Assembly (NCBI GenBank): GCA_965202625.1
Contig: CBDBBI010000010.1
Coordinates: 1,019,050-1,083,049, forward strand
Direction of reading: 5' to 3'
DNA from: a bacterium
GTDB taxonomy: Bacteria; UBA8248
Length of the DNA stretch: 64,000 bases
In this document: positions 3,730 through 62,308 of the stretch, piece after piece
How positions within the stretch are numbered: position 1 is the stretch's first letter
Layout: each line of letters opens with the position of its first letter
Program-made: the position numbers and the translations under genes
The notes under the pieces: model-generated
What the model was told of the DNA's origin: nothing
What the model saw: the letters and a program-made list of their open reading frames with translations, nothing else
Databases searched by the model: none

Positions 3730-5066
3730 GCGATCCCCCTCATGAGAGCGACCGCGACCTCGCATCCTCGGTGAAAGAGCTCTACGTCGATGTTCTCATC
3801 GGGAGCATGGGCGTTTGAATCCGCATTGGCGAGGGGGAGCCAAACGGAAGGAACGCGCAATTCCCTCGTGAACATTTTGTCGGGAACGCTGCCGCCGAAG
3901 TTTGGATAGATGACGGGTTCGACACCATAACAACTGACAGCCTCGATCACCTTTTGAACGTAAGGATCGTCCGCCGGCGTCTTACTGGCGTCAAACGTCG
4001 CCATCTTGCGCGCCTCGATATCGTCAAAGCCCTCCGCCTTCAAGAATGAACGCAATTGATGGAAAATCTCATCAGGGGACTGATCTACCACCAGGCGAAA
4101 ATCTAACTTGGCGCGCGCAGTGCCCGGTATGACCGTCTTCATACCATTCCCAGAATAACCCCCCTGAAATCCGCAAACGTTCAAGTTTGGCTGCGTAAGA
4201 GACTTCGCGTAAAAAGCGGAGATATCTGGAATTCGCTCAACCCCGTCTCCGAGGACGGCGCGAAGTTCCGCCTCCGGGTCGGGGATTCCCGCTAGGGCGT
4301 CTCGATCCGCATCGCTAATCGGGAGCACAGCGTCGTAGAATCCAGGTACGCGCACCCTCCCCTCGCCGTCTCGCAGACATCGCACGGCGTCGATGAGGCG
4401 CCAGAATGGATTGAGAACCGGCCCGCCATACATCCCGGAGTGGAGGTCTTTTCCGGCCCCGCGCGCAACGAGTTCGACATAAAGCAATCCCCTGCAGCCC
4501 AAAGAGAGCGTCGGCCTACCAGATGGGTGCAAGGAACCATCCGATGAGCAGGCGATATCTGCTTTTAGCAGCTCTTTGTTCGATTGGATAAATTTTCGCA
4601 AGTTAGGAGACCCCACCTCCTCCTCGCCTTCTATCAGAAACTTAAGGTTGATAGGCACCTCGGCACTCGTTCGGTGATAGGCTTCCGCCGCCTTGATCTG
4701 GGCGAAGTGCTGGCCTCTATTGTCTCCCGCTCCACGAGCGTACAAACGGCCATCGCGCACCTGAGGATCAAATGGTTCAGAACTCCAGCCCTCCGCTATA
4801 TTGGCCGGCTGAACGTCGTAGTGGCCATAAATCAGCATCGTGGGGGCATCTGAATGTCCCTTCATCTCTCCATACACGAGGGGAATTCCCTCGGTCGGGA
4901 GAATTTGCGCTTTGATACCCGCATCGCTCATCAACGCCGCCAAATGATCCGCCGCCTCTTGAACGCCTACTCCCAAAGTGCTGATGGCGGGTTTTTTAAG
5001 GTATTCGACGAGCTCCGCCAGGTTTTGCTCCCTTCTTGCTCGCAGAAAGTCAATCACCGCCGACAT
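3726..5066 (-). CDS. M20-family metallopeptidase (dipeptidase/ArgE/DapE-like)
   Basis: Trimmed to the Met at MSAVIDFL. Motifs HYDVQP, GAGDNRG and EGEEEVGS are M20 metal-binding signatures. Confidence 0.8.
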   Translation of the reverse strand: MSAVIDFLRARREQNLAELVEYLKKPAISTLGVGVQEAADHLAALMSDAGIKAQILPTEGIPLVYGEMKGHSDAPTMLIYGHYDVQPANIAEGWSSEPFDPQVRDGRLYARGAGDNRGQHFAQIKAAEAYHRTSAEVPINLKFLIEGEEEVGSPNLRKFIQSNKELLKADIACSSDGSLHPSGRPTLSLGCRGLLYVELVARGAGKDLHSGMYGGPVLNPFWRLIDAVRCLRDGEGRVRVPGFYDAVLPISDADRDALAGIPDPEAELRAVLGDGVERIPDISAFYAKSLTQPNLNVCGFQGGYSGNGMKTVIPGTARAKLDFRLVVDQSPDEIFHQLRSFLKAEGFDDIEARKMATFDASKTPADDPYVQKVIEAVSCYGVEPVIYPNFGGSVPDKMFTRELRVPSVWLPLANADSNAHAPDENIDVELFHRGCEVAVALMRGIA

Positions 5067-32505: not shown

Positions 32506-33519
32506 ATGAAGTGGCGCAAAATAGAAGGAAAAATAGCGCATACAGTTATGAGAGCGGGATTTTTCCTCAAGAGATTTCCGTTTATTATTCTCCTCTTTAC
32601 GACTGGCTGCGCCACGGTTGCTCCTTCCACCACTCCGGTGGAAGCTCCCGTATCTAGGGCCGCCCAGAAAAAAGCGCAACAAAAGGCTCTCACTCCCCAG
32701 AGAAAGATACTCAAGCGCAAAATCGCGATTGGCCGCTTCACCAACGAGACGCGTTACGGCAAGACTTTCTTGCGAGACGGGGACACCGACCCTTTAGGAA
32801 AGCAAGCTTCCGACATGCTCGCCAATCGCCTCGTAAGTTCCGGGAAATTTCTGGTTTTTGAGCGTCCGGACCTTGTGAAAATCAAGCGCGAACAAAGCGT
32901 CCTAAAAAAATCCAACCTGATCGGCGTGGACGTCCTTATCTTGGGGTCGGTGACGGAGTTCGGTCGCTCCACCACGGGCCAGTCCGGCTTCTTGAGTGCG
33001 ACGAAAAAGCAGACTGCGCAGGCGAAGGTCGAAATACGTATGGTGGACGTACGGACGGGGCACGTGTTTTTCTCCGCCTCCGGCTCAGGAGAGGCAAGTA
33101 CCGAATCGGGGGAAGTCGCCGGCTTCGGCAGTCGGGCGGGCTACGACGCCACGCTGAATGACAAGGCGATTGGCGCCGCCATATCCGACTTCCTGAATTC
33201 CCTTATCTCGAAAATCGATGAGAGAATTTGGAGAACGGACATCCTGCGAATCAAGGGAAGCGAGATCATCATCACTGGCGGCAGACGGCAGGGGATTCAG
33301 ATCGGTGACGTATTAAACGTGATGAGAGAAGGAGAACGGGTGAAGAGCAGGCAAACTGGCTTTGAAATTTCGCTTCCCCCTTCAAAGGTCGGCGAAATAC
33401 GGATTGTCAGCCTTTTTGGAGATACCGAAACCAATGAAGGGTCAGTGGGCACAATCTTGTCGGGAACGTTTCCTGGAAGTCGGACGGATGGACTCTTCGT
33501 TTCAGAGATAAGGAAATAA
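32506..33519 (+). CDS. CsgG-family (curli-type assembly/transport) lipoprotein
   Basis: A lipobox LFTTGC is followed by the CsgG core (KIAIGRFTNETRYG...DMLANRLVSSGKFLVFER). Confidence 0.7.
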   Translation: MKWRKIEGKIAHTVMRAGFFLKRFPFIILLFTTGCATVAPSTTPVEAPVSRAAQKKAQQKALTPQRKILKRKIAIGRFTNETRYGKTFLRDGDTDPLGKQASDMLANRLVSSGKFLVFERPDLVKIKREQSVLKKSNLIGVDVLILGSVTEFGRSTTGQSGFLSATKKQTAQAKVEIRMVDVRTGHVFFSASGSGEASTESGEVAGFGSRAGYDATLNDKAIGAAISDFLNSLISKIDERIWRTDILRIKGSEIIITGGRRQGIQIGDVLNVMREGERVKSRQTGFEISLPPSKVGEIRIVSLFGDTETNEGSVGTILSGTFPGSRTDGLFVSEIRK

Positions 33520-33524
33520 TTTCG

Positions 33525-33854
33525 ATGAAATTATTTGTTGCGGGCTTTCTGCTCATGCTCCTCACCGTTGGTTGCTATCCATCAAGCGAGGTTCGGGTGA
33601 CGGACAGTAGACCGAGGCTAGCCATCAAGAACGCCCCAAAGAACGCCATCATCTATGTCGATGGGCTGAATTTGGGATTCGCGAACCAATATAGCGGAGA
33701 CCAGTCGAGTGACGAGAGTGGAGAGGTGCGCGTCCTTTTGTTAGAGCCGGGAAGGCACCTGATTGAGGTGAAGAGCGACGGCGAAACATTGCTTTCCGAG
33801 GATGTTTTCCTTGGAGAAGGCACACTGAAAACGCTGACAGTGAAACAGGAGTGA
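33525..33854 (+). CDS. small lipoprotein with PEGA-like beta-sandwich
   Basis: A lipobox LTVGC is followed by IIYVDGLNLG...GRHLIEVKSDG. Confidence 0.5.
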   Translation: MKLFVAGFLLMLLTVGCYPSSEVRVTDSRPRLAIKNAPKNAIIYVDGLNLGFANQYSGDQSSDESGEVRVLLLEPGRHLIEVKSDGETLLSEDVFLGEGTLKTLTVKQE

Positions 33855-33864
33855 GTAAAACGAA

Positions 33865-34239
33865 ATGATCACCAAAAGATTGTCCGTCCTGCTCGTCTCC
33901 ATCCTGATTTCAGCTTGCGCGCAGACAAAATACCATTGGGGCGGGTACGAAAACGCTTTATATCAATACTATAAAAGTCCAGCGGAGCTTGGGAGTCTCG
34001 CGAAAGAGTTAAGAGGTGCAATCACCCAGGGGGAACAGGATGAGAAAGTTCCGCCCGGCCTTTATGCCGAGCTCGGTTATGTGCTCCTCGTCCAAGGAAA
34101 GAAGCAGGAAGCCGTCACTTACTTTCAAAAAGAAAAGAAATTATGGCCTGAATCAGCCAAATTGATGGATACGATGGTTAAAATGGCGAAAACCTCCGGA
34201 GGCGTGAAATCTGCTGGCTCCAAGGGAGAAAATCGATAA
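33865..34239 (+). CDS. DUF4810-family lipoprotein
   Basis: A lipobox ISAC is followed by YHWGGYENALYQYY...VPPGLYAELGYVLL. Confidence 0.55.
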   Translation: MITKRLSVLLVSILISACAQTKYHWGGYENALYQYYKSPAELGSLAKELRGAITQGEQDEKVPPGLYAELGYVLLVQGKKQEAVTYFQKEKKLWPESAKLMDTMVKMAKTSGGVKSAGSKGENR

Positions 34240-34908
34240 ATGCTATCAAAAACATTCGCATCAGGAGTTCTTGTTACGATATTGCTCGTCTCAGGTTGCG
34301 CTGCTCGCCCAAAACCATCGGATTTCACCAAATTCCGCAACGAAAATCCCAGATCGATTCTGGTCGTGCCTGCCATCAACAAGGCCGTTGAAGTCAACGC
34401 TCCAGATTATTTTCTTTCAACTATCTCGAAGCCTGTCGCTGAAAGAGGATTTTACGTATTTCCCGTGAACGTAGTGAAACGTGTAATGGAAGACGATGGT
34501 CTCGCTGATGCGAATTTGGTTCACAATGCCGACCCGAAACGCTTGGGAGAGATATTTGACGCCGATGCCATTCTTTACGTCTCGATAGATAGATGGGACG
34601 CGCAATATATTGTGTTCTCCACCCAGGTGACGGTGGAATTCACTTATGTTCTCAAGAGCGGTCGCACCGGCGAAGAGCTGTGGCGACGAACGGCAAAAAT
34701 GGTGTATTCGCCTCAAAGCAGCACGAATACGGGCAACCCTCTTGCCACTCTCATCATAATGGCGGCCCAGGCAGCTATTACGAAAGCGGCGCCGAACTAT
34801 ATCCCCTTGACCCAACAAGCCAACTTTTTAGCAGTCATTGAACCCGGACAAGGATTGCCCGCAGGCCCTTATCGAAAAGATTATCTGAAAGATCAGGACA
34901 AATTCTGA
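34240..34908 (+). CDS. DUF799-family lipoprotein (GNA1162-like)
   Basis: The start is adjacent to the previous stop (TAAATG). A lipobox LVSGC is followed by ILVVPAINKAVEVNAPDYF, which is typical of DUF799. Confidence 0.6.
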   Translation: MLSKTFASGVLVTILLVSGCAARPKPSDFTKFRNENPRSILVVPAINKAVEVNAPDYFLSTISKPVAERGFYVFPVNVVKRVMEDDGLADANLVHNADPKRLGEIFDADAILYVSIDRWDAQYIVFSTQVTVEFTYVLKSGRTGEELWRRTAKMVYSPQSSTNTGNPLATLIIMAAQAAITKAAPNYIPLTQQANFLAVIEPGQGLPAGPYRKDYLKDQDKF

Positions 34909-34914
34909 AGAACC

Positions 34915-35050
34915 ATAGTCGAAGTCGCTCTCTACTGAGCCGGATAGCCCGGCCCGGAGAGCGTCTCAGCGATCCTCCCCGTCGGCGATGCACGACGTCG
35001 TTCCCCGCAAAATTTTGACCGAGTGCGTCTGAACGGATGGGCGGCGAACA
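34915..35050. repeat. degenerate direct-repeat copy of the 3' end of the prpE-like acyl-CoA synthetase gene (left boundary of the inserted element)
   Basis: It aligns base by base with 42285-42470, beginning atagtcgaagtc... and including ccggatagccc, cgtcggcgatgc and ttccccg.aaaattttg.ccgag. The alignment contains an internal ~50-bp deletion and scattered mismatches. Confidence 0.7.
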
Positions 35051-35306
35051 ACAAGCTGAGGGCGGGACGTGCGCGAACCGGTAATAGGTTTTAGGTTTGT
35101 CCGAAGCCGCAACGCGCGGGCGATGAACACCCTCCGCCAGATGCAGTCTCTTGCTCGTGGATTTCAAGGCAAACGACTGACCTGGCAAGACCTCACGAAG
35201 TGAATCATCCCCATATCTGGGACGCTTGACTCCAAAAATCTACCTCATATCGAGTGAAAAAAGTCGAGAGTTCCGCTGGAGGACCGGAGCTATCGTTGGA
35301 AAGGGC

Positions 35307-36056
35307 TCATGCAGACCGCCTCGTCTGCTCTGCTGAAATATCCATAATACCCTGAGATTTCAATACCTCATCTCTGAGGACTACGCCTACAACGTCCAAG
35401 ACCTGCTTTAACGCAATGCCATTATTATAGGCGGACATTTGCATTGCTTCCCGTGGTATTTTTTCCGTTAAATCATCAAGGAGATTTTCTTGGGCATACG
35501 CAAAGCACATCTCCTGTATTTCGTAGGCATTCTTGTCTTTACCGCTTATTTGTTCCTTTAATGCTTCTGCATATCCCGAAATCCATTCGTTGATTTGTAT
35601 TTCTTCAGCAACCCTTTCCCCCAGTTCGCTGAGCCTGCGCGGGCTATCGGATTCCGTTGTTTCGGGAGGGGGCAATCGCGAAAAAATAGATTTTATGTCT
35701 GCTCGTATTTCCTTTACCTCATTTTTGATTTCGCTTCGTATTGCATTTGTTTCATTTTTGATTTCCGCTCGTATTGCATTTGTTTCATTTCTGATTTCGC
35801 TTCGTATTGCATTTGTTTCATTTCTGATTTCATCTCGTATTTCTTTTGTTTCATTGCTGATTTCATCTCGTATTTCTTTTATCTGATCTCGAATTTCTCC
35901 CATAAATGTCGATATGCTCTCTCCCTTTTCGTTTACTTTTGCAATCCATGTTGCAGCGCGTATTGCAGCCCATATTGCAAGAGCAAAGAGGACGACAATA
36001 ATGAGTAATATATTTCCTTTGAAGGCTTCAAGGAGAAATACGTTGATGGAGCTCAT
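35307..36056 (-). CDS. membrane-anchored protein containing about six tandem 11-aa repeats (NETNAIRSEIR-type coiled-coil)
   Basis: The 249-aa protein has an N-terminal TM helix, then the repeat block EIRDEIRNETNAIRSEIRNETNAIRAEIKNETNAIRSEIKNEVKEIRADIK. The gene's GC content is about 45%, against about 62% for the genome. Confidence 0.6.
   Translation of the reverse strand: MSSINVFLLEAFKGNILLIIVVLFALAIWAAIRAATWIAKVNEKGESISTFMGEIRDQIKEIRDEISNETKEIRDEIRNETNAIRSEIRNETNAIRAEIKNETNAIRSEIKNEVKEIRADIKSIFSRLPPPETTESDSPRRLSELGERVAEEIQINEWISGYAEALKEQISGKDKNAYEIQEMCFAYAQENLLDDLTEKIPREAMQMSAYNNGIALKQVLDVVGVVLRDEVLKSQGIMDISAEQTRRSA
35694..35895. repeat. 33-bp tandem repeat (about 5.5 copies) inside the gene above
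   Basis: Successive copies read gatttcgcttcgtattgcatttgtttcattttt, gatttccgctcgtattgcatttgtttcatttct, gatttcgcttcgtattgcatttgtttcatttct, gatttcatctcgtatttcttttgtttcattgct and further degenerating units. Confidence 0.75.
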
Positions 36057-36529
36057 AGCAAGACCTCACAAAATGAAAGGCATCCTTTGCTATTTGCTAA
36101 CCTGTTGTTTTGGATTTCTTGTCCGCCGCCCGTAAAAATGGATTTAGCGATTTCCTGCGCGGTTGCGGGCAGGGGTTTGATGACGTTCTTCAAAGTCCGG
36201 CCCGGCGACTTTGAAGTGTTCATAGGCGCCCCCCTATGGCGACATATCATGTTCAGGTGAAAAATCCACCTGAGCAAATTTACCATATCACACCTTAAAA
36301 GAAACCTAATTTCATTATCCTTGACAAGTCAAAAACCGTTCTACTATACTCTCGCCTATCGTCAAGCAACTTGCAGAGCGGCCTTGGCTACCGTGTCGCC
36401 TGCCAAACGCAAAACCGCTCCGCGTGGGCGGAAACAGGCAGGAACCCACCACTGGGCTGTGCGTTGTTTGGCGACGGACCCGGCTTTGTCATTAGGCATG
36501 TTTCTTTTTTTCAGGGAGGAGGTCTCAAC

Positions 36530-37195
36530 ATGAAGAGATGGGGATTTCTGTGCGCAGCGGCTGCTCTCATTTTGGTCTTGTCGGCTCCCCTCATGGCAAG
36601 AGCACAAGAGGGGGGAAGTCAACAAGAGGGGGCGGGGAAATGGTATTGGAAATTCAACGTGGGGATATTGTCGCCAAGAGATTTGGAGAGCACCGCACCA
36701 CCCTCACCTACCCTCAACGCGGACATTGATACCGGGGTTTTCGTGAGCACCTCCGTTGGCCGTTCTTTCGGTCGCCTGAGGGGAGAGGTGGAGGTTTTGT
36801 ATGGAGAAGTCGATTACACACTGGACGCAACTACAAGAGGCGTGAACGGAGACGTCGTCGACATCACTCGCATCGGGGGGGAGTTCGCGGAGTTCGAAGC
36901 CAAAATTACGGGGCTGATGTTCAACGCATGGTTTGACCTGGGCGCGAGCGACTGGGCACTCAACCCCTACGTAGGGGGAGGGGTTGGAGTGATGCATCTC
37001 GACGTGCCACGTGGTACCGACAGCGGCTTCTCCTGGCAACTCGGTGCGGGCGCAATTTTTCCCATAGGCAATAATCTGGCACTTGACGCCAGCTACCGGT
37101 TTCTGAACACCGCCTACGAACCTGAAATTTTCTCTATTGTGTATGAGGATATCGAGGCACACGCATTCTTGCTGGGCATCAAGCTCACGTTCTAG
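36530..37195 (+). CDS. outer-membrane beta-barrel protein (OmpW/opacity-porin-like)
   Basis: An RBS GGGAGGAGG precedes the start. The signal peptide is MKRWGFLCAAAALILVLSAPLMA. Alternating-hydrophobic beta strands are present and the C-terminus ends in aromatic LTF. Confidence 0.7.
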   Translation: MKRWGFLCAAAALILVLSAPLMARAQEGGSQQEGAGKWYWKFNVGILSPRDLESTAPPSPTLNADIDTGVFVSTSVGRSFGRLRGEVEVLYGEVDYTLDATTRGVNGDVVDITRIGGEFAEFEAKITGLMFNAWFDLGASDWALNPYVGGGVGVMHLDVPRGTDSGFSWQLGAGAIFPIGNNLALDASYRFLNTAYEPEIFSIVYEDIEAHAFLLGIKLTF

Positions 37196-57493: not shown

Positions 57494-58246
57494 ATGCCAG
57501 TGAAAGTAAGCATCAAAAACCTGCACATGGAATACTACCTCAAGGACAGGAAGGTTCATGCCCTCAAGGAAATCAACCTCGACATTCAGAATGGAGAGTT
57601 CGTCTGCGTCGTGGGGTTGTCCGGATGCGGAAAGACCACTCTGCTGAACATTCTTGCCGGATTCCTGGAGCATACGGCCGGCTCCATTCTGCTTGACGGC
57701 AAACCCATCTCGAATGCGGGCCGCATGAACCGGGGCGTCGTGTTTCAGGAATACGCGCTCTTCCCCTGGCGTACGGCTCTTCGGAACGTCGAATTCGGAC
57801 TTGAGATGAAGGGACTGAGCAGGGAGGAGCGCACGAAAAAAGCCCAGGAATACCTCTCGCTCGTCCACCTGGAGAAGTTCACCCACCTGTATCCCCACAA
57901 CCTCTCGGGCGGCATGAAGCAGCGCGTCGCCGTGGCGAGGGCATACGCCTACGAACCCCAATTCATGCTGATGGACGAGCCCTTCGGCGCACTCGACGCG
58001 CAGACGAGGGAGAATCTCCAGTCCCTGACGGTCGAGGTCTGGGAGAAGACCCAAAAAACCATCTTCTACGTCACGCACAACCTCAGCGAAGCGGTTTATC
58101 TTGCGGACAGAATCATCGTCCTCGCCGGCCAGCCGGGGAAAATTCACAAAGAGATCAGGGTGGACCTCCCCCGGCCCAGAGACCCGTTCGACCCCAAGGT
58201 GGTGGACCTCGAACATCAGACGACCGAGGCGGTGCGCGGCAACTGA
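57494..58246 (+). CDS. ABC transporter ATP-binding protein (NitT/TauT nitrate/sulfonate/taurine family)
   Basis: Walker A GLSGCGKTT, signature LSGGMKQR and Walker B FMLMDEPFGALD are all present. Confidence 0.85.
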   Translation: MPVKVSIKNLHMEYYLKDRKVHALKEINLDIQNGEFVCVVGLSGCGKTTLLNILAGFLEHTAGSILLDGKPISNAGRMNRGVVFQEYALFPWRTALRNVEFGLEMKGLSREERTKKAQEYLSLVHLEKFTHLYPHNLSGGMKQRVAVARAYAYEPQFMLMDEPFGALDAQTRENLQSLTVEVWEKTQKTIFYVTHNLSEAVYLADRIIVLAGQPGKIHKEIRVDLPRPRDPFDPKVVDLEHQTTEAVRGN

Positions 58247-58528
58247 AGCCGTCTCATCTGGGATTTTTTCCGAATTTTCCGGTGCAACAGCACATGCAGA
58301 TCCGGACGCGAGAGCGCAAACTCCCGCAAGGGGGGAAGCCTGTGCTTACAAGTTTGGATTATTGAAAATGGAATGGTGCGCTTTTGGATTCGATAAAATA
58401 GCCCAACCTTCCTATTTTATAAGCATAGAAGGAGGGACACGATGAACATGAGAGATTTGCAAGACTTTTCACGCCGAAAGCGGGGAGGGATTCGATGATT
58501 CGATTCGCCAGTTTATCGGGGCGGCCGC

Positions 58529-59475
58529 ATGAACCGCCTGTTTTATGGGGACAATCTTCAGATTATGGGAGAATTGCCTCCAAATAGCGTTGACCTCATC
58601 TATTTAGACCCGCCATTCAACTCGAACAAAAACTACAACCTCATGTATCGGGACATGGTGGGCCGTCCCGTTTCGGAACAAATAGAGGCGTTCTGCGACA
58701 CATGGGAAATGGACGCCGAGAAGGAAGAGATCGCCCGGAAAATGCCGGTCCCTTATGCGAGAACAAGGGATCGAGGATTACTACGTCGATTTCTGGCGGC
58801 TCTGGATCAAGGCTTTGCGGCACACCCAGCCGCGCCCTCGCCTATCTCTCCTACATGTCGGAACGGCTTGCCGAGGCGCGCCGCCTCCTCAAGCCCACAG
58901 GCTCCATCTACCTGCATTGCGACCCGACCATGAGCCATTATCTGAAGGCGGTGATGGATGACGTTTTCGGCGTCAAGAATTTTAGAAACGAGATTATTTG
59001 GAGCGGCATTCCGCACGACCTCTCCAGTGCGCGGAAGCTCGCGCAGGACAAACCCTTCGACTTCGAGAAATGGGCGATTTGCCGAATCCCCGGGCTCGCG
59101 CCAAACGCCAGGCAGGTGGGCGACGGGGGAATCGACGGACGTGGCCTGCTTTTGAACGCGCCCGACGATCACGATTCCCGCCTGGTACTGGCACAAGTCA
59201 AGGGTGGAAAATTCCAGGCGAGCGGGTTGCGGGATTTTCTGGGCGTCATGGAAAGGGATCGCGCCGCCATGGGCGTATTCATCACCCTGAACAGCGCGAC
59301 CTCTCCCCATGCGCACACCGAAGCGGGGCGAAAGGGAAGCATCCGCATGGGCGCGTCTCAATATCCGCGCGCGCAATTATGGTCGATAGACGATCATTTC
59401 AGAAAGAATCAGCCGCACATGCCGCCCCTCGCCGACCCTTACACGGGCAAGGAAATGCAGCAGCCCCTGTTTTGA
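58529..59475 (+). pseudogene. N6/N4 DNA methyltransferase (PF01555-type, DPPF...TGSIYLHCD) fused to an Mrr-like PD-(D/E)xK endonuclease domain, frameshifted
   Basis: Frame A reads MNRLFYGDNLQIMGELPPNSVDLIYLDPPFN...AFCDTWEM. Frame B (ORF 58702..59475) reads ...ALAYLSYMSERLAEARRLLKPTGSIYLHCDPTMSHYLKAVMDDVFGVKNFRNEIIW...VGDGGIDGRGLL...LAQVKGGK. At least one frameshift lies near 58740-58790. Confidence 0.6.
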
Positions 59476-59494
59476 CAATACGAAGGGAGATGAC

Positions 59495-59761
59495 GTGATA
59501 TGGTTCGCGGAATTTATCGATTCAAGCGGAAAGTTCGTCGCGTTCGGCGATGATCCCGAAGAGATGCCCGTCCACAAGGAACAGCGGAACGGCGGCCTCT
59601 ATCCGACGCCCATGACCTTCCCCTCGTGTCTGAAGTTTCTCTGGGGAGCGGATGAGGTGGCGCTGCCCCGCAAGGTCACCGAGCAGGAAATCCTGAATCG
59701 CTTCGCCGATCCCGATCATGAAGAAGACTGGGAGCGCGAACTGCGGCGCCGAACGACCTGA
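59495..59761 (+). CDS. small hypothetical protein (MTFPSCLKFL family), paralog of 61004..61204
   Basis: The 88-aa protein starts MIWFAEFIDSSGKFVAFGDD and contains MTFPSCLKFLWGADE, shared with the paralog at 61004..61204. Confidence 0.4.
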   Translation: MIWFAEFIDSSGKFVAFGDDPEEMPVHKEQRNGGLYPTPMTFPSCLKFLWGADEVALPRKVTEQEILNRFADPDHEEDWERELRRRTT

Positions 59762-60007
59762 CGTTCTCGCCAACGGGGACTTTCCCGATTCTTTGGCGCG
59801 CTATCTGACGCCGCATTCCCTTGCCCAGCGCTGGACGTTCCCAGATCGCCCTCCGTTGTCTGGCGCACTATCTGACGCCTCTGACGCCATCACCTCGCGC
59901 TGGCCATGCTTCGCGCCTGTCCGTTATTTCCTTGGGAAATTTTGTTGATTTGTCGCCAATCGGATAGCGTTGGATTCGCCGTTTTCGCGTTGACGCAAGG
60001 CGCGGTT

Positions 60008-60302
60008 CCGAAATCCAAGACCTTCTGATGCGAAAACGGCCGACTCCCCGGAGGGGAGCCGGCCGCCTTAAGCCGCTCTTATCGCCGCTGACCGCCCACT
60101 TCCTCCATCATGCCCCACTTGACGACGGTCACCCTCTCGAACTTCTCAAAAATGAATTTCTCCATCACGAATCCCACCAAAGCGATGGCCGCGATTCCCA
60201 CGAGCATGAAAGCCGTATCCAGATCTTCACGGCTGTCGAATATGGCGTATCCCAAGCCCCAATCACTCGCGGCCACCATCTCTCCGGCGATGCCCGCGCG
60301 CC
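60008..60302. repeat. displaced direct-repeat copy of the 3' end plus downstream hairpin of the ABC permease gene (native copy 61366-61662)
   Basis: About 295 bp are near-identical to the native copy and encode the ...AASDWGLGYAIFDSREDLDTAF...MMEEVGGQRR C-terminus (track ORF 60079..60279). Confidence 0.75.
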
Positions 60303-60457
60303 GAAGCGGGACAAAAGGGGAACATCCGCATGGGCGCGTCCCAATATCCGCGCGCGCAATTATGGTCGATAGACGATCATTTCAGAAAGAATCAGCCGCA
60401 CATGCCGCCCCTCGCCGACCCTTACACGGGCAAGGAAATGCAGCAGCCTCTATTTTG
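60303..60457. repeat. second copy of the methyltransferase-Mrr gene 3' end (native copy 59321-59475), fused directly to the permease-3' repeat
   Basis: The sequence gaagcggg...catccgcatgggcgcgtc.caatatccgcgcgcgcaattatggtcgatagacgatcatttcagaaagaatcagccgcacatgccgcccctcgccgacccttacacgggcaaggaaatgcagcagcc is repeated. Confidence 0.75.
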
Positions 60458-60544
60458 AGCTGACGCGCTGGCGGGGCGCGGATGGCGGGACAACGCGCTG
60501 ATGCGCGGGCTTTATTCGCACTTTTAATATGTGATACAAGCAAA

Positions 60545-60578
60545 GGGCTCCGGGTAGAGACCGGAGCCCTTTTGATTT
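60545..60578 (+). terminator. rho-independent terminator
   Basis: A hairpin gggctccgg-gtagaga-ccggagccc is followed by ttttgattt. Confidence 0.55.
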
Positions 60579-60680
60579 GCCCGTTCGCTTGCTGACAAGG
60601 TCGCTCACGGGATATGACCGCTGCCCCCAACATATCCTTTGCAAAGCGAACCTGTCAACTTCATGGGAGGGGTTCGCTTT

Positions 60681-60950
60681 ATGGACGAGAAGACGCTTCT
60701 TTGCCGCGTTTGCAAGATCGAGCCGAAACGCGTCGAAGAGGAAGGAAAGCCTGATCTGATACGTTGTCCCCGGTGCGGCGCATTCGGTAATTTTGATGAA
60801 GTCCTTGAAGCGGCTTCCAGGCATTTGACAGGCAGCATCATAAACGACGGGTTCAATCGCCGCGCGCGTAAATCCAGGAGATCGAAGGTTATGCGCTACG
60901 TCCTCGGCAATCGCAAAAATATCACTGCCCCCGCTTTCATCTTTCAATGA
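60681..60950 (+). CDS. small zinc-ribbon protein (CxxC...CxxC)
   Basis: The 89-aa protein reads MDEKTLLCRVCKIEPKRVEEEGKPDLIRCPRCGAF and has a basic C-terminus. The GGAGGGG RBS is upstream. Confidence 0.4.
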   Translation: MDEKTLLCRVCKIEPKRVEEEGKPDLIRCPRCGAFGNFDEVLEAASRHLTGSIINDGFNRRARKSRRSKVMRYVLGNRKNITAPAFIFQ

Positions 60951-61003
60951 TGATTCCTCCTTGACGCGCGCTAGACGATCTCCCGACCGAAGCGTTTCCT
61001 GAT

Positions 61004-61204
61004 CTATTTCGCCGTCGTCTTGGCGGCATCGGTGATGTCGTCCGCACCGTGCAGGAATTTGAGGCAGGAAGGGAACGTCATCTCCGTTCTGGAATAGTCG
61101 GGACCGCCGCCGACGCCCAGGCTGTAGACGGGCAGGACGTTCCTGTTTTCTCCAAACGCGATGAATTTATGGTCGCCGTCCGTGAATTGCACCAGATAGA
61201 TCAT
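61004..61204 (-). CDS. small hypothetical protein (MTFPSCLKFL family), paralog of 59495..59761 in opposite orientation
   Basis: The 66-aa protein reads MIYLVQFTDGDHKFIAFGEN...MTFPSCLKFLHGADD. Confidence 0.4.
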   Translation of the reverse strand: MIYLVQFTDGDHKFIAFGENRNVLPVYSLGVGGGPDYSRTEMTFPSCLKFLHGADDITDAAKTTAK

Positions 61205-61438
61205 TCGTATTTCTCCAAAATGGACTTATTGAACACGTCGGCGGCGAAGTTGGCGTTTTCCGCGCGGGAAACGCCCGACGGATTCATGGCGATTTCGGAG
61301 ACGAGGGAGAACTTGATGGGACTTAGGGGATCTGCACCAAAGCGTCGAGGGCCAGGGGGCGCAGTTCCGAAATCCAAGACCTTCTGATGCGAAAACGGCC
61401 GACTCCCCGGGAGGGGAGCCGGCCGCCTTAAGCCGCTC

Positions 61439-62308
61439 TTATCGCCGCTGACCGCCCACTTCCTCCATCATGCCCCACTTGACGACGGTCACCCTCTCGA
61501 ACTTCTCAAAAATGAATTTCTCCATCACAAATCCCACCAAAGCGATGGCCGCGATTCCCACGAGCATGAAAGCCGTATCCAGATCTTCACGGCTGTCGAA
61601 TATGGCGTATCCCAAGCCCCAATCACTCGCGGCCACCATCTCTCCGGCGATGCCCGCGCGCCAGGCGCGCGCCAGGCCGATGCGGACGCCTGAGAGAATG
61701 AACGGCAGCGAACCTGGGAAGATGACCTTCCAGAACAAGGTCATCCCCTCCGCGTTCATCGACTTCGCAGCCCGTATCCAGATCGGATTGATGGTTTTCA
61801 CCCCCGTCCACGTGGAGGAGATGGCGGGCAGTGCCGCGGCGAACGCGGTGATGAAAATCATGGTGGTATTGCCGAGGCCGAACCACAAAACGAGAATCGG
61901 GCTCCAGGCCAGTGCCGGTATGGGCAGAAGCATGCTCAGGATGGGGATCATGAATTTCTCGAACCAACCGACGCGGCCCATGGCGATGCCGATGGCTATC
62001 CCCACGAAGCCGGCGATGATCATTCCCACCATAATCCGCCAGGCGGTGTGATAGGAGTGCACGCAGAGAACGCAGGTGGTATCGCCGGACTTGAGGAAAG
62101 TGACTTCATAAAAACGGTGCAAAATGGGCAGTGCCCGCGGAAAGAGCGCGGGCTCGTTCACAATCCAGGCGATGGACTCCCAAATCACCAGCACCGCGAT
62201 AAAACTGGGAATGTTGTCCCTGATCCACATCCACATTTTTTCCTGCGCGGTGTATTCCGTCGGCAGCCTGACGTCATCCCTTCTGATTTCATCCGTCGCG
62301 GTGGTCAT
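61439..62308 (-). CDS. ABC transporter permease (NitT/TauT family, TauC/SsuC-like)
   Basis: The 289-aa protein has six TM segments and an EAA-like loop region. It is the likely partner of the ATPase at 57494..58246 but lies on the opposite strand, 3.2 kb away. Confidence 0.8.
   Translation of the reverse strand: MTTATDEIRRDDVRLPTEYTAQEKMWMWIRDNIPSFIAVLVIWESIAWIVNEPALFPRALPILHRFYEVTFLKSGDTTCVLCVHSYHTAWRIMVGMIIAGFVGIAIGIAMGRVGWFEKFMIPILSMLLPIPALAWSPILVLWFGLGNTTMIFITAFAAALPAISSTWTGVKTINPIWIRAAKSMNAEGMTLFWKVIFPGSLPFILSGVRIGLARAWRAGIAGEMVAASDWGLGYAIFDSREDLDTAFMLVGIAAIALVGFVMEKFIFEKFERVTVVKWGMMEEVGGQRR

Follow-up and report, generated by a model that had tools for sequence, protein, structure and literature searches.

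A strain-specific island between two transporter genes

The 64,000-nucleotide (nt) stretch of bacterial DNA analysed here (contig CBDBBI010000010.1 of assembly GCA_965202625.1, GTDB lineage UBA8248; hereafter the window, whose coordinates are used throughout) contains an island of about 3.1 kb, 58247–61357, that lies between the ATPase gene and the permease gene of the ATP-binding cassette (ABC) transporter type. The island holds the remains of a DNA methyltransferase (MTase) gene with a C-terminal Mrr-like domain, and next to it two interleaved pairs of direct repeats that enclose unrelated cargo, a pattern that probably arose when two allelic versions of the island were joined at one illegitimate junction. 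An earlier note on this DNA had called the region a rearrangement hotspot, a description supported by the several illegitimate junctions found in it. The native flanks and the left end of the island are as follows.

57494..58246, + strand: ABC transporter ATPase gene, intact, of the taurine/sulfonate/nitrate type (Pfam ABC_tran, E = 8.5e-33; SaoA/TauB-like by NCBIfam); native left flank
58247..58528, no strand: left end of the island, a leader 5' of the MTase start with a GC content of 0.49, without counterpart in the relatives
61439..62308, - strand: ABC permease gene, intact, TauC/SsuC-like (Pfam BPD_transp_1; NCBIfam), 289 amino acids (aa) as in the relatives; native right flank

The proteins of the window place it in a Nitrospinota genome, on a contig of 2.92 Mb. 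The ATPase gene (+) and the permease gene (-) are direct convergent neighbours in 16 out of 16 related Nitrospinota loci, which include four complete contigs of about 3 Mb, show about 87% nucleotide identity, and leave between the two genes a gap of 91–243 bp that holds one hairpin terminator. Nucleotide homology of these relatives to the window ends at 58244–58252 and restarts at 61439, the permease stop codon, and the native intergenic DNA can be aligned to them from about 61366. Since the two genes are adjacent in the 16 related loci, 58247–61357 is an insertion, specific to this strain, between two intact transporter genes. It entered within a few bases of the ATPase stop codon, ahead of the terminator shared with the convergent permease gene, and its right edge coincides with the left end (61358) of a repeat that we call B. 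The separation of the ATPase from the permease, to which the earlier note had drawn attention, is thus borne out by the relatives, but the genes are convergent and not co-transcribed.

The lower GC content that had been ascribed to the whole region holds for only a part of it: 58247–58833 is clearly low (0.49–0.52), while the island overall, at 0.563, compares with 0.588 for the window (standard deviation 0.041, in 3-kb windows). The leader, 58247–58528, had no match in phage, plasmid or viral loci. At its two borders (58247–58255 and 61357–61368) the island weakly resembles the first bases past the ATPase stop codon in one relative, L011 (AGGCGTTCC). A target duplication of 4–9 nt (AGGCGT-like) at these borders was considered, but the evidence is too weak to claim one, as the sequences are very short and intergenic DNA is not well conserved between the relatives. 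As a separate observation, one of the related Nitrospinota loci (L016, 17152–18581) has a strain-specific insertion of its own, with DUF4145 and DUF433 genes, between the MR_MLE and amidohydrolase genes, and this insertion is missing from the other related loci.

A chimeric MTase-Mrr pseudogene

The leader is followed by three fragments that resemble two subfamilies of beta-class N6/N4 MTases, represented by the full-length protein relatives P0115 and P0029.

58529..58832, + strand: MTase fragment F1, residues 1–101 of a P0115-type beta-class N6/N4 MTase, with the DPPF motif (tblastn)
58834..59004, + strand: MTase fragment F2, P0029-type residues 119–175, PTGSIYLHCD...NEIIWS (tblastn; blastn to 8353–8522 of L018, the locus of P0029)
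59005..59475, + strand: fragment F3, Mrr_cat-like C-terminal domain of the PD-(D/E)xK type, P0029 residues 336–491 (Pfam Mrr_cat, E = 3.3e-7; tblastn)

The fusion of an MTase to an Mrr-like domain, proposed from the sequence in the earlier note, is confirmed both by the Pfam match of F3 and by its 78% identity to the P0029 C-terminus. As for the reading frames, which the same note had placed in at least two around 58740–58790, there is indeed a shift at 58751, but a second one at about 58833 falls outside that range, and a 480-nt deletion has to be added. In tblastn alignments, residues 1–74 of P0115 correspond to 58529–58750 and residues 75–101 to 58752–58832, with one extra base at 58751 as the first frameshift. 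The second is a chimeric junction, at which F1 is joined out of frame to F2, and the MTase reading consequently needs three frames. The in-frame 480-nt deletion lies at 59004/59005 and is seen by protein alignment, by tblastn (P0029 residues 336–491 align to 59005–59472) and by blastn, where the gap corresponds to 8523–9009 of L018. Residues 176–335 of P0029, including the S-adenosylmethionine (AdoMet)-binding motif DPFCGCGTT, are gone with it, so that both the intervening target-recognition region and motif I (DPFxGxGTT) are missing, while the catalytic motif IV (DPPF) is present at about 58607–58618 in frame 1. The Pfam MTase match spans only profile positions 25–81 of 221.

The fragments do not share one closest relative. 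F1 is 82% identical to P0115 and 44% to P0029, whereas F2 is 84% identical to P0029 and 69% to P0115, and F3, at 78% to P0029, is only 34% identical to P0115. The switch from the one subfamily to the other coincides with the second frameshift, and across it the GC content changes from 0.515 (F1) to 0.597 (F2 and F3). Given this switch, the identities on its two sides and the change in GC content, the pseudogene is the debris of at least two MTase genes. The combination of P0115 and P0029 types was found in none of 120 protein relatives or 80 viral loci. The window MTase-Mrr is thus a dead, chimeric, twice-frameshifted and internally deleted pseudogene, a copy that, judged by the residues it has lost, cannot encode an active MTase.

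Full-length relatives are 460–552 aa long and combine an N6_N4_Mtase domain, the core of which resembles M.RsrI, CcrM and M.MboIIA, with a C-terminal Mrr_cat-like domain. With these beta-class enzymes (PF01555) the window copy still shares a recognizable motif IV (DPPF), the stretch PTGSIYLHCD...NEIIW and the Mrr_cat-like end; unlike them, it is a chimera of two subfamilies with two frameshifts and no AdoMet-binding motif I. Contigs of (pro)phages often carry beta-class MTase-Mrr fusions. IMG/VR viral contigs contain 344 relatives of the MTase, and nearly all of those fetched have an Mrr-like C-terminus. The closest full-length relative, P0029, lies among IS1595 and Mutator-type transposases, and when the DNA of the island was compared with phage and plasmid collections the matches were confined to the conserved MTase core. 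The island is mobile-element-derived, with phage-type beta-class DNA MTase genes that bear a C-terminal Mrr-like domain. The fallback reading of the earlier note, decay of a restriction-modification (RM)-associated island, is supported by the chimeric, deleted MTase and by a premature stop in one of two small open reading frames (ORFs) described below.

Three further observations concern this MTase family. The locus of P0029 is rich in mobile elements, with P0029 clustered at 3934–11538 of L018 with an IS1595 transposase, a P63C protein, a split MTase-HNH gene and a Mutator-type transposase. A single genome of 3.95 Mb contains at least eight different MTase(-Mrr) paralogues (P0054, P0062, P0071, P0073, P0087, P0095, P0146 and others), a striking expansion. 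Several matches to the family are labelled as Poribacteria metagenome-assembled genomes (MAGs).

Two interleaved repeat pairs and their cargo

From the 3' end of the pseudogene into the permease gene, the region is made up of two repeat pairs, A and B, and two cargo units, X and Y.

59320..59475, + strand: repeat A1, the last 51 codons and stop of the MTase-Mrr pseudogene (repeat finder, alignment, self-BLAST)
59476..59998, no strand: unit X, cargo of the putative haplotype 1, from the MTase stop codon to the island/native boundary, without DNA similarity to Y
59999..60302, - strand: repeat B1, displaced copy of native intergenic DNA, terminator hairpin (60034–60068) and the last 224 nt of the permease gene; 99% identical to 61358–61662
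60303..60458, + strand: repeat A2, orphan 3' end (51 codons and stop) of a second P0029-type MTase-Mrr allele (P0029 residues 440–491, 69%)
60459..61357, no strand: unit Y, cargo of the putative haplotype 2, from the MTase stop codon to the island/native boundary, GC content 0.554 (self-BLAST)
61358..61662, - strand: repeat B2, the native copy, with ancestral intergenic DNA, terminator hairpin (61393–61428) and the permease 3' end (alignment to relatives)
61655–61677: 11-nt tandem CGCGCGCCAGG x2 in the permease gene, holding the 10-nt palindrome GGCGCGCGCC (sequence)

The recurrence of the MTase 3' end, as the earlier note had it, was recovered by pairwise alignment, in which 59320–59475 matches 60303–60458 over 156 nt with seven mismatches (95.5% identity); the repeat finder extends this pair to 59312–59475 and 60295–60458 through imperfect microhomology. 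The permease-side repeat is equally real (61358–61662 versus 59999–60302, 305 and 304 nt, two mismatches and one indel in the hairpin loop, 99% identity), though it is a few bases longer than had been described and does not consist of about 295 bp of the gene: only 224 nt are permease coding sequence (61439–61662), the other 81 nt being 3' flank that includes the terminator hairpin. Alignment and self-BLAST also agree with the note in placing the displaced copies, B1 and A2, side by side at 60302/60303, the sole novel junction. The units thus run A1-X-B1|A2-Y-B2, two repeat pairs interleaved in the same orientation, and the self-comparison of the region that the note had called for, done as self-BLAST with a word size of 7, revealed just these two pairs and no other repeats longer than about 24 nt in 58247–61700. 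Both repeat pairs are real, and chance cannot account for them.

B1 and B2 both align to the single permease 3' end of each relative (L001–L016), and a strong terminator hairpin is kept in both copies (for B1, -36.3 kcal/mol, z = -5.7). Homology ends exactly at the MTase stop codon on the one side (A1|X, A2|Y) and at the island/native boundary on the other (X|B1, Y|B2). A1 and A2 are separated by five synonymous and two non-synonymous differences (P = 0.006 against the neutral expectation), and in their coding part B1 and B2 differ by a single change, which is synonymous. From the synonymous bias it follows that A1 and A2 diverged as functional alleles and not as a pseudogene fragment and its parent. 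On its right, repeat B breaks off inside the first unit of the CGCGCGCCAGG tandem, and the microhomology at the junction amounts to 2 nt if perfect or to 6/8 if imperfect.

Between the repeats, X and Y showed no DNA similarity to each other, to the window, to 103 fetched loci or to the phage and plasmid collections. Their contents are as follows.

59495..59761, + strand: ORF88, apparently intact member of a small-protein family with the motif FPSCLKF (family hidden Markov model (HMM), E = 7.6e-26)
59789..59879, + strand: two 24-nt direct repeats, 88% (59789–59812, 59856–59879), and the tandem TCTGACGCC x2 at 59871–59888 (repeat finder)
60543..60580, + strand: strong hairpin followed by a T-run, about 85 nt past the A2 stop codon (-28.4 kcal/mol, z = -4.3)
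60681..60950, + strand: Zn-ribbon ORF (CxxC-x19-CxxC), orphan, of uncertain coding status, with a probable start ATG at 60681
60971..61204, - strand: ORF66, the other FPSCLKF-family ORF of the island, truncated by a premature stop (complement of 61004–61006; family HMM, E = 5.1e-22)

The two 18-bp direct repeats reported earlier from X exist, but they start at 59795 and 59862, one base away from where they had been placed, and extend to 24 nt; the wider 67-nt units around them are weakly similar, and they gave no structure signal (fold z-score -0.15). In Y, the hairpin at 60543–60580 is likely the original terminator of the second MTase allele. The Zn-ribbon ORF is present as the earlier note had it, with its CxxC...CxxC pattern, but had no homologue among 5.8 billion proteins; its match to the NCBIfam ECs_2282 CxxC (prophage) family is weak and below threshold (E = 3.5e-4). 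A further reading frame, ORF58 (61201–61377, - strand), was treated as spurious; in the locus L020 the gene upstream of the family member does not resemble it. Searches of the region with Rfam returned only a chance-level match, and promoter and terminator scans remained at background level.

That the 88-aa ORF of X has an inverted paralogue in Y is correct: ORF88 and ORF66 share 44% identity (E = 8e-19), and past its premature stop the frame of ORF66 continues with IRKRFGREIV, the C-terminal motif of the family. The homologue search that the note had proposed for these proteins depended on method. A word-based protein search returned only ORF88 and ORF66 themselves, whereas an exhaustive profile search yielded about 58 small relatives of 60–130 aa that follow the pattern F.DGD..F.AFG.D...PVY...M.FPSC.KF...I...YG, with the conserved motif FPSC.KF and a beta-meander. 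About 60 cluster representatives make up the family (relatives P0153–P0232); the large multi-repeat matches that the search also returned (P0148 and similar) consist of BNR/propeller repeats and were discarded as spurious. The family has no match in Pfam, PHROG, PADLOC or NCBIfam, and the AlphaFold2 model of ORF88, although its pLDDT is 88.8, had no significant structural neighbour in the PDB or BFVD.

Four members could be placed in context: one in a phage with terminase and capsid genes (L023), one in a primase/GIY-YIG/NYN element (L020), one next to T5orf172 (L022) and one after a giant repeat protein (L021). Scans with the family yielded no relatives in viral contigs or metagenome contigs and, in genome contigs, one frameshifted remnant between uvrC and a gene for a 1176-aa protein (L019, 5876–6075, in the Bryobacterales MAG OZ244625.1). 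By the family HMM, members are absent near 82 other MTase-Mrr loci and at the 16 related Nitrospinota loci. Previously unannotated, seen in phage or mobile-element contexts and with a confident predicted fold, the FPSCLKF family is the most reusable by-product of this analysis.

Origin of the nested repeats

The flanks of X and Y are 95.5% and 99% identical, the cargo they enclose is unrelated, homology ends exactly at the stop codon and at the island boundary, and synonymous changes are overrepresented among the differences of A1 from A2; together these point to two alleles of one locus, as does A2's having kept a terminator-like hairpin of its own. The whole pattern needs just one new junction, B1|A2. 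In our best reading, to which we give a probability of about 0.6, two allelic versions of one decaying, mobile-element-derived island have been joined by a single illegitimate junction into a hetero-allelic merodiploid. Here we infer the two-allele origin from the nested repeats themselves, the parental alleles not having been observed. Both transporter genes remain intact, the ATPase gene having lost its adjacent terminator, and the region is a non-functional recombination scar and not a working system.

Two closely related strains would each have carried an allele consisting of the MTase 3' end, a cargo, the native intergenic DNA and the permease 3' end, the one with X and the other with Y, and the alleles would have been joined head to tail at 60302/60303, at the GC-rich palindromic tandem repeat in the permease gene. 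The most economical route would be homology-facilitated illegitimate recombination of incoming conspecific DNA, of which one end would pair by homology in or upstream of the island, while the other, inside the permease copy, would be joined illegitimately to the resident MTase 3' end. The same product could come from unequal crossing-over between two copies of the chromosome. RecA-type recombination between A1 and A2, or between B1 and B2, would restore either single allele.

Known systems offer close parallels. As in homology-facilitated illegitimate recombination (de Vries and Wackernagel, 2002, and Prudhomme et al., 2002; summarized in PMC4437187), one side would be set by homology and the other is a single GC-rich illegitimate junction with minimal microhomology, and donor DNA would lie beside resident DNA with no mobility genes. 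Unlike in that system, the illegitimate end would here have been joined upstream of its own homologue, giving a hetero-allelic duplication and not a replacement, and donor, recipient and competence are all presumed. With the merodiploids generated by transformation (Johnston et al., 2013; PMC3784515) the locus shares the head-to-tail duplication and the presence of two different alleles of one locus, and instability with resolution by homologous recombination between the repeats would be expected of it as of them. The pneumococcal duplications, however, span 100–900 kb and result from alternative pairing of repeats derived from insertion sequences (IS), whereas the unit here is about 1–1.4 kb and the join illegitimate.

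Several points weigh against this reading. No conspecific genome with only A-X-B or only A-Y-B was found in the collections searched, which contain no conspecific genome; ORF88 and ORF66 each occur on one contig only; and the junction 33-mer was not found in JGI metagenome contigs, so that the parental alleles had to be reconstructed. The synonymous/non-synonymous argument rests on seven differences. Because the microhomology at the junction is so short (2 nt perfect), it does not by itself discriminate between a biological event and a chimeric read. The competence of the organism is likewise presumed, and the model gives no reason for the differences between the alleles to begin precisely at the MTase stop codon and to run as far as the island edge.

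The same structure could have arisen in situ, within one chromosome, although we consider this unlikely. Either A-cargo-B would have been duplicated in tandem and one cargo then replaced, or a 461-nt patch (B1 and A2) would have been copied from templates close by into a formerly contiguous X-Y by replication template switching. In its favour, the four repeat copies are confined to 2.4 kb, the permease copy has its breakpoint in an 11-nt palindromic tandem repeat that is prone to slippage, further illegitimate events have taken place locally within the island, and one island could have held both small-ORF paralogues as cargo. However, simple tandem duplication predicts that X equals Y, and the two are unrelated. 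A patch, for its part, would require two coincidences, a start precisely on the island/native boundary and an end precisely on the MTase stop codon. It would also mean that A2 had never been coding, which does not fit the excess of synonymous changes among its differences from A1.

Somewhat more improbable, in our judgement, is an assembly artefact, in which two co-existing strain haplotypes (A-X-B and A-Y-B) were placed in tandem through a chimeric read or a graph error. The sequence expected from it would match the one seen at every point but the junction. Repeats of 156 and 304 nt are far below long-read length and therefore unable to confuse a long-read assembler (that this is a long-read assembly with circular contigs is suggested by contig names in sister assemblies, such as ctg..._118x_c). 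While tandem diverged alleles of one locus do have the look of a heterotype false duplication (PMC8081667), and the source is a metagenome-assembled contig, the link from B to A requires a chimeric read or a molecule that really exists, and a chimeric read that stands alone is as a rule outvoted. Similarly, the junction is almost without microhomology and occurs in no independent assembly, but its breakpoint lies at a recombination-prone palindromic repeat, and the remaining island shows genuine decay that is unrelated to assembly.

RM genes flanked by direct duplications of up to about 420 bp are a documented class known as insertion with long target duplication (Nobusato et al., 2000; Furuta et al., 2010; PMC2853133), defined by direct repeats of more than 30 bp on a target that is single-copy, an insert with restriction (R) and modification (M) gene homologues, no mobility genes and a length below 20 kb; its repeats range from 46 to about 420 bp, and all RM types are represented. 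On this model an A2-Y unit would have inserted into the permease 3' region, duplicating 304 nt, an A1-X unit would later have inserted at the ATPase stop codon, and the 5' part of the first unit would have been deleted. B1 and B2 are indeed long (304-nt) direct repeats of a target that is single-copy in the empty-site genomes, they flank MTase-derived, RM-related DNA, mobility genes are lacking and the insert is shorter than 20 kb. Nevertheless, the DNA between them holds a 156-nt MTase fragment, the Zn-ribbon ORF and a truncated small ORF, and because complete R and M genes are missing there the locus does not belong to the class. Most of the island also lies outside this repeat pair, and the second, interleaved pair, A1 and A2, falls outside the model, which leaves near-identical alleles that end at the same stop codon without explanation. 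Requiring two insertions and a deletion that ended exactly at the end of B1, the scenario is less parsimonious, and we regard it as highly unlikely.

Two further readings involve an exchange of cargo. In the first, X and Y would be alternative accessory modules behind the stop codons of phage-type MTase-Mrr genes, the FPSCLKF proteins would act on the linked MTase/Mrr-like nuclease or on host restriction, by modulating or counteracting it, strains would exchange modules by recombination, with homology arms provided by the conserved MTase 3' end and the chromosomal flank, and the tandem would be a snapshot of such an exchange; we mention this as a long shot. The second is the earlier note's own proposal of repeated site-specific insertion or cassette exchange that captures small-ORF cassettes at gene 3' ends. 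Terminator hairpins are a type of target used by some elements, and the insertion point here adjoins one; X and Y alike start at an MTase stop codon and have their other end at one and the same chromosomal nucleotide, and each contains an FPSCLKF family member. Yet this proposal is the least probable of all and went unsupported, as ORF lists and Pfam scans of 56.5–63.5 kb revealed no integrase, transposase or other recombinase, no shared short core, inverted repeat, attC-like or Rfam/structure signal is present at 59475/6, 59998/9, 60302/3, 60458/9 or 61357/8, the duplicated flanks are long (156 and 304 nt) with inner ends that fall arbitrarily within coding sequence, the 82 other MTase-Mrr loci and the 16 related Nitrospinota loci lack the small-ORF family, the X and Y cassettes do not recur in the loci and collections compared, the cargo is itself decaying, and one junction suffices.

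Read as two alleles of one island joined at one junction, the locus adds a new example to the known kinds of RM-linked rearrangement and involves no new mechanism. It serves as a worked example of how an apparent programmed cassette exchange can be explained by one illegitimate junction that joins two alleles, and it could represent a naturally occurring, unstable hetero-allelic merodiploid. It also shows how RM debris of phage origin builds up and is rearranged, between core genes that are intact, in a lineage of Nitrospinota; this lineage has relatives reported from sponge microbiomes, where defence genes are enriched (PMC5649159).

The lowest GC content of the whole window (0.475–0.51, against 0.588 overall) is found outside the island, at 33000–37000, where CsgG-like, GNA1162-like lipoprotein, coiled-coil and outer-membrane beta-barrel proteins are encoded, apparently an outer-membrane or curli-type secretion cluster.

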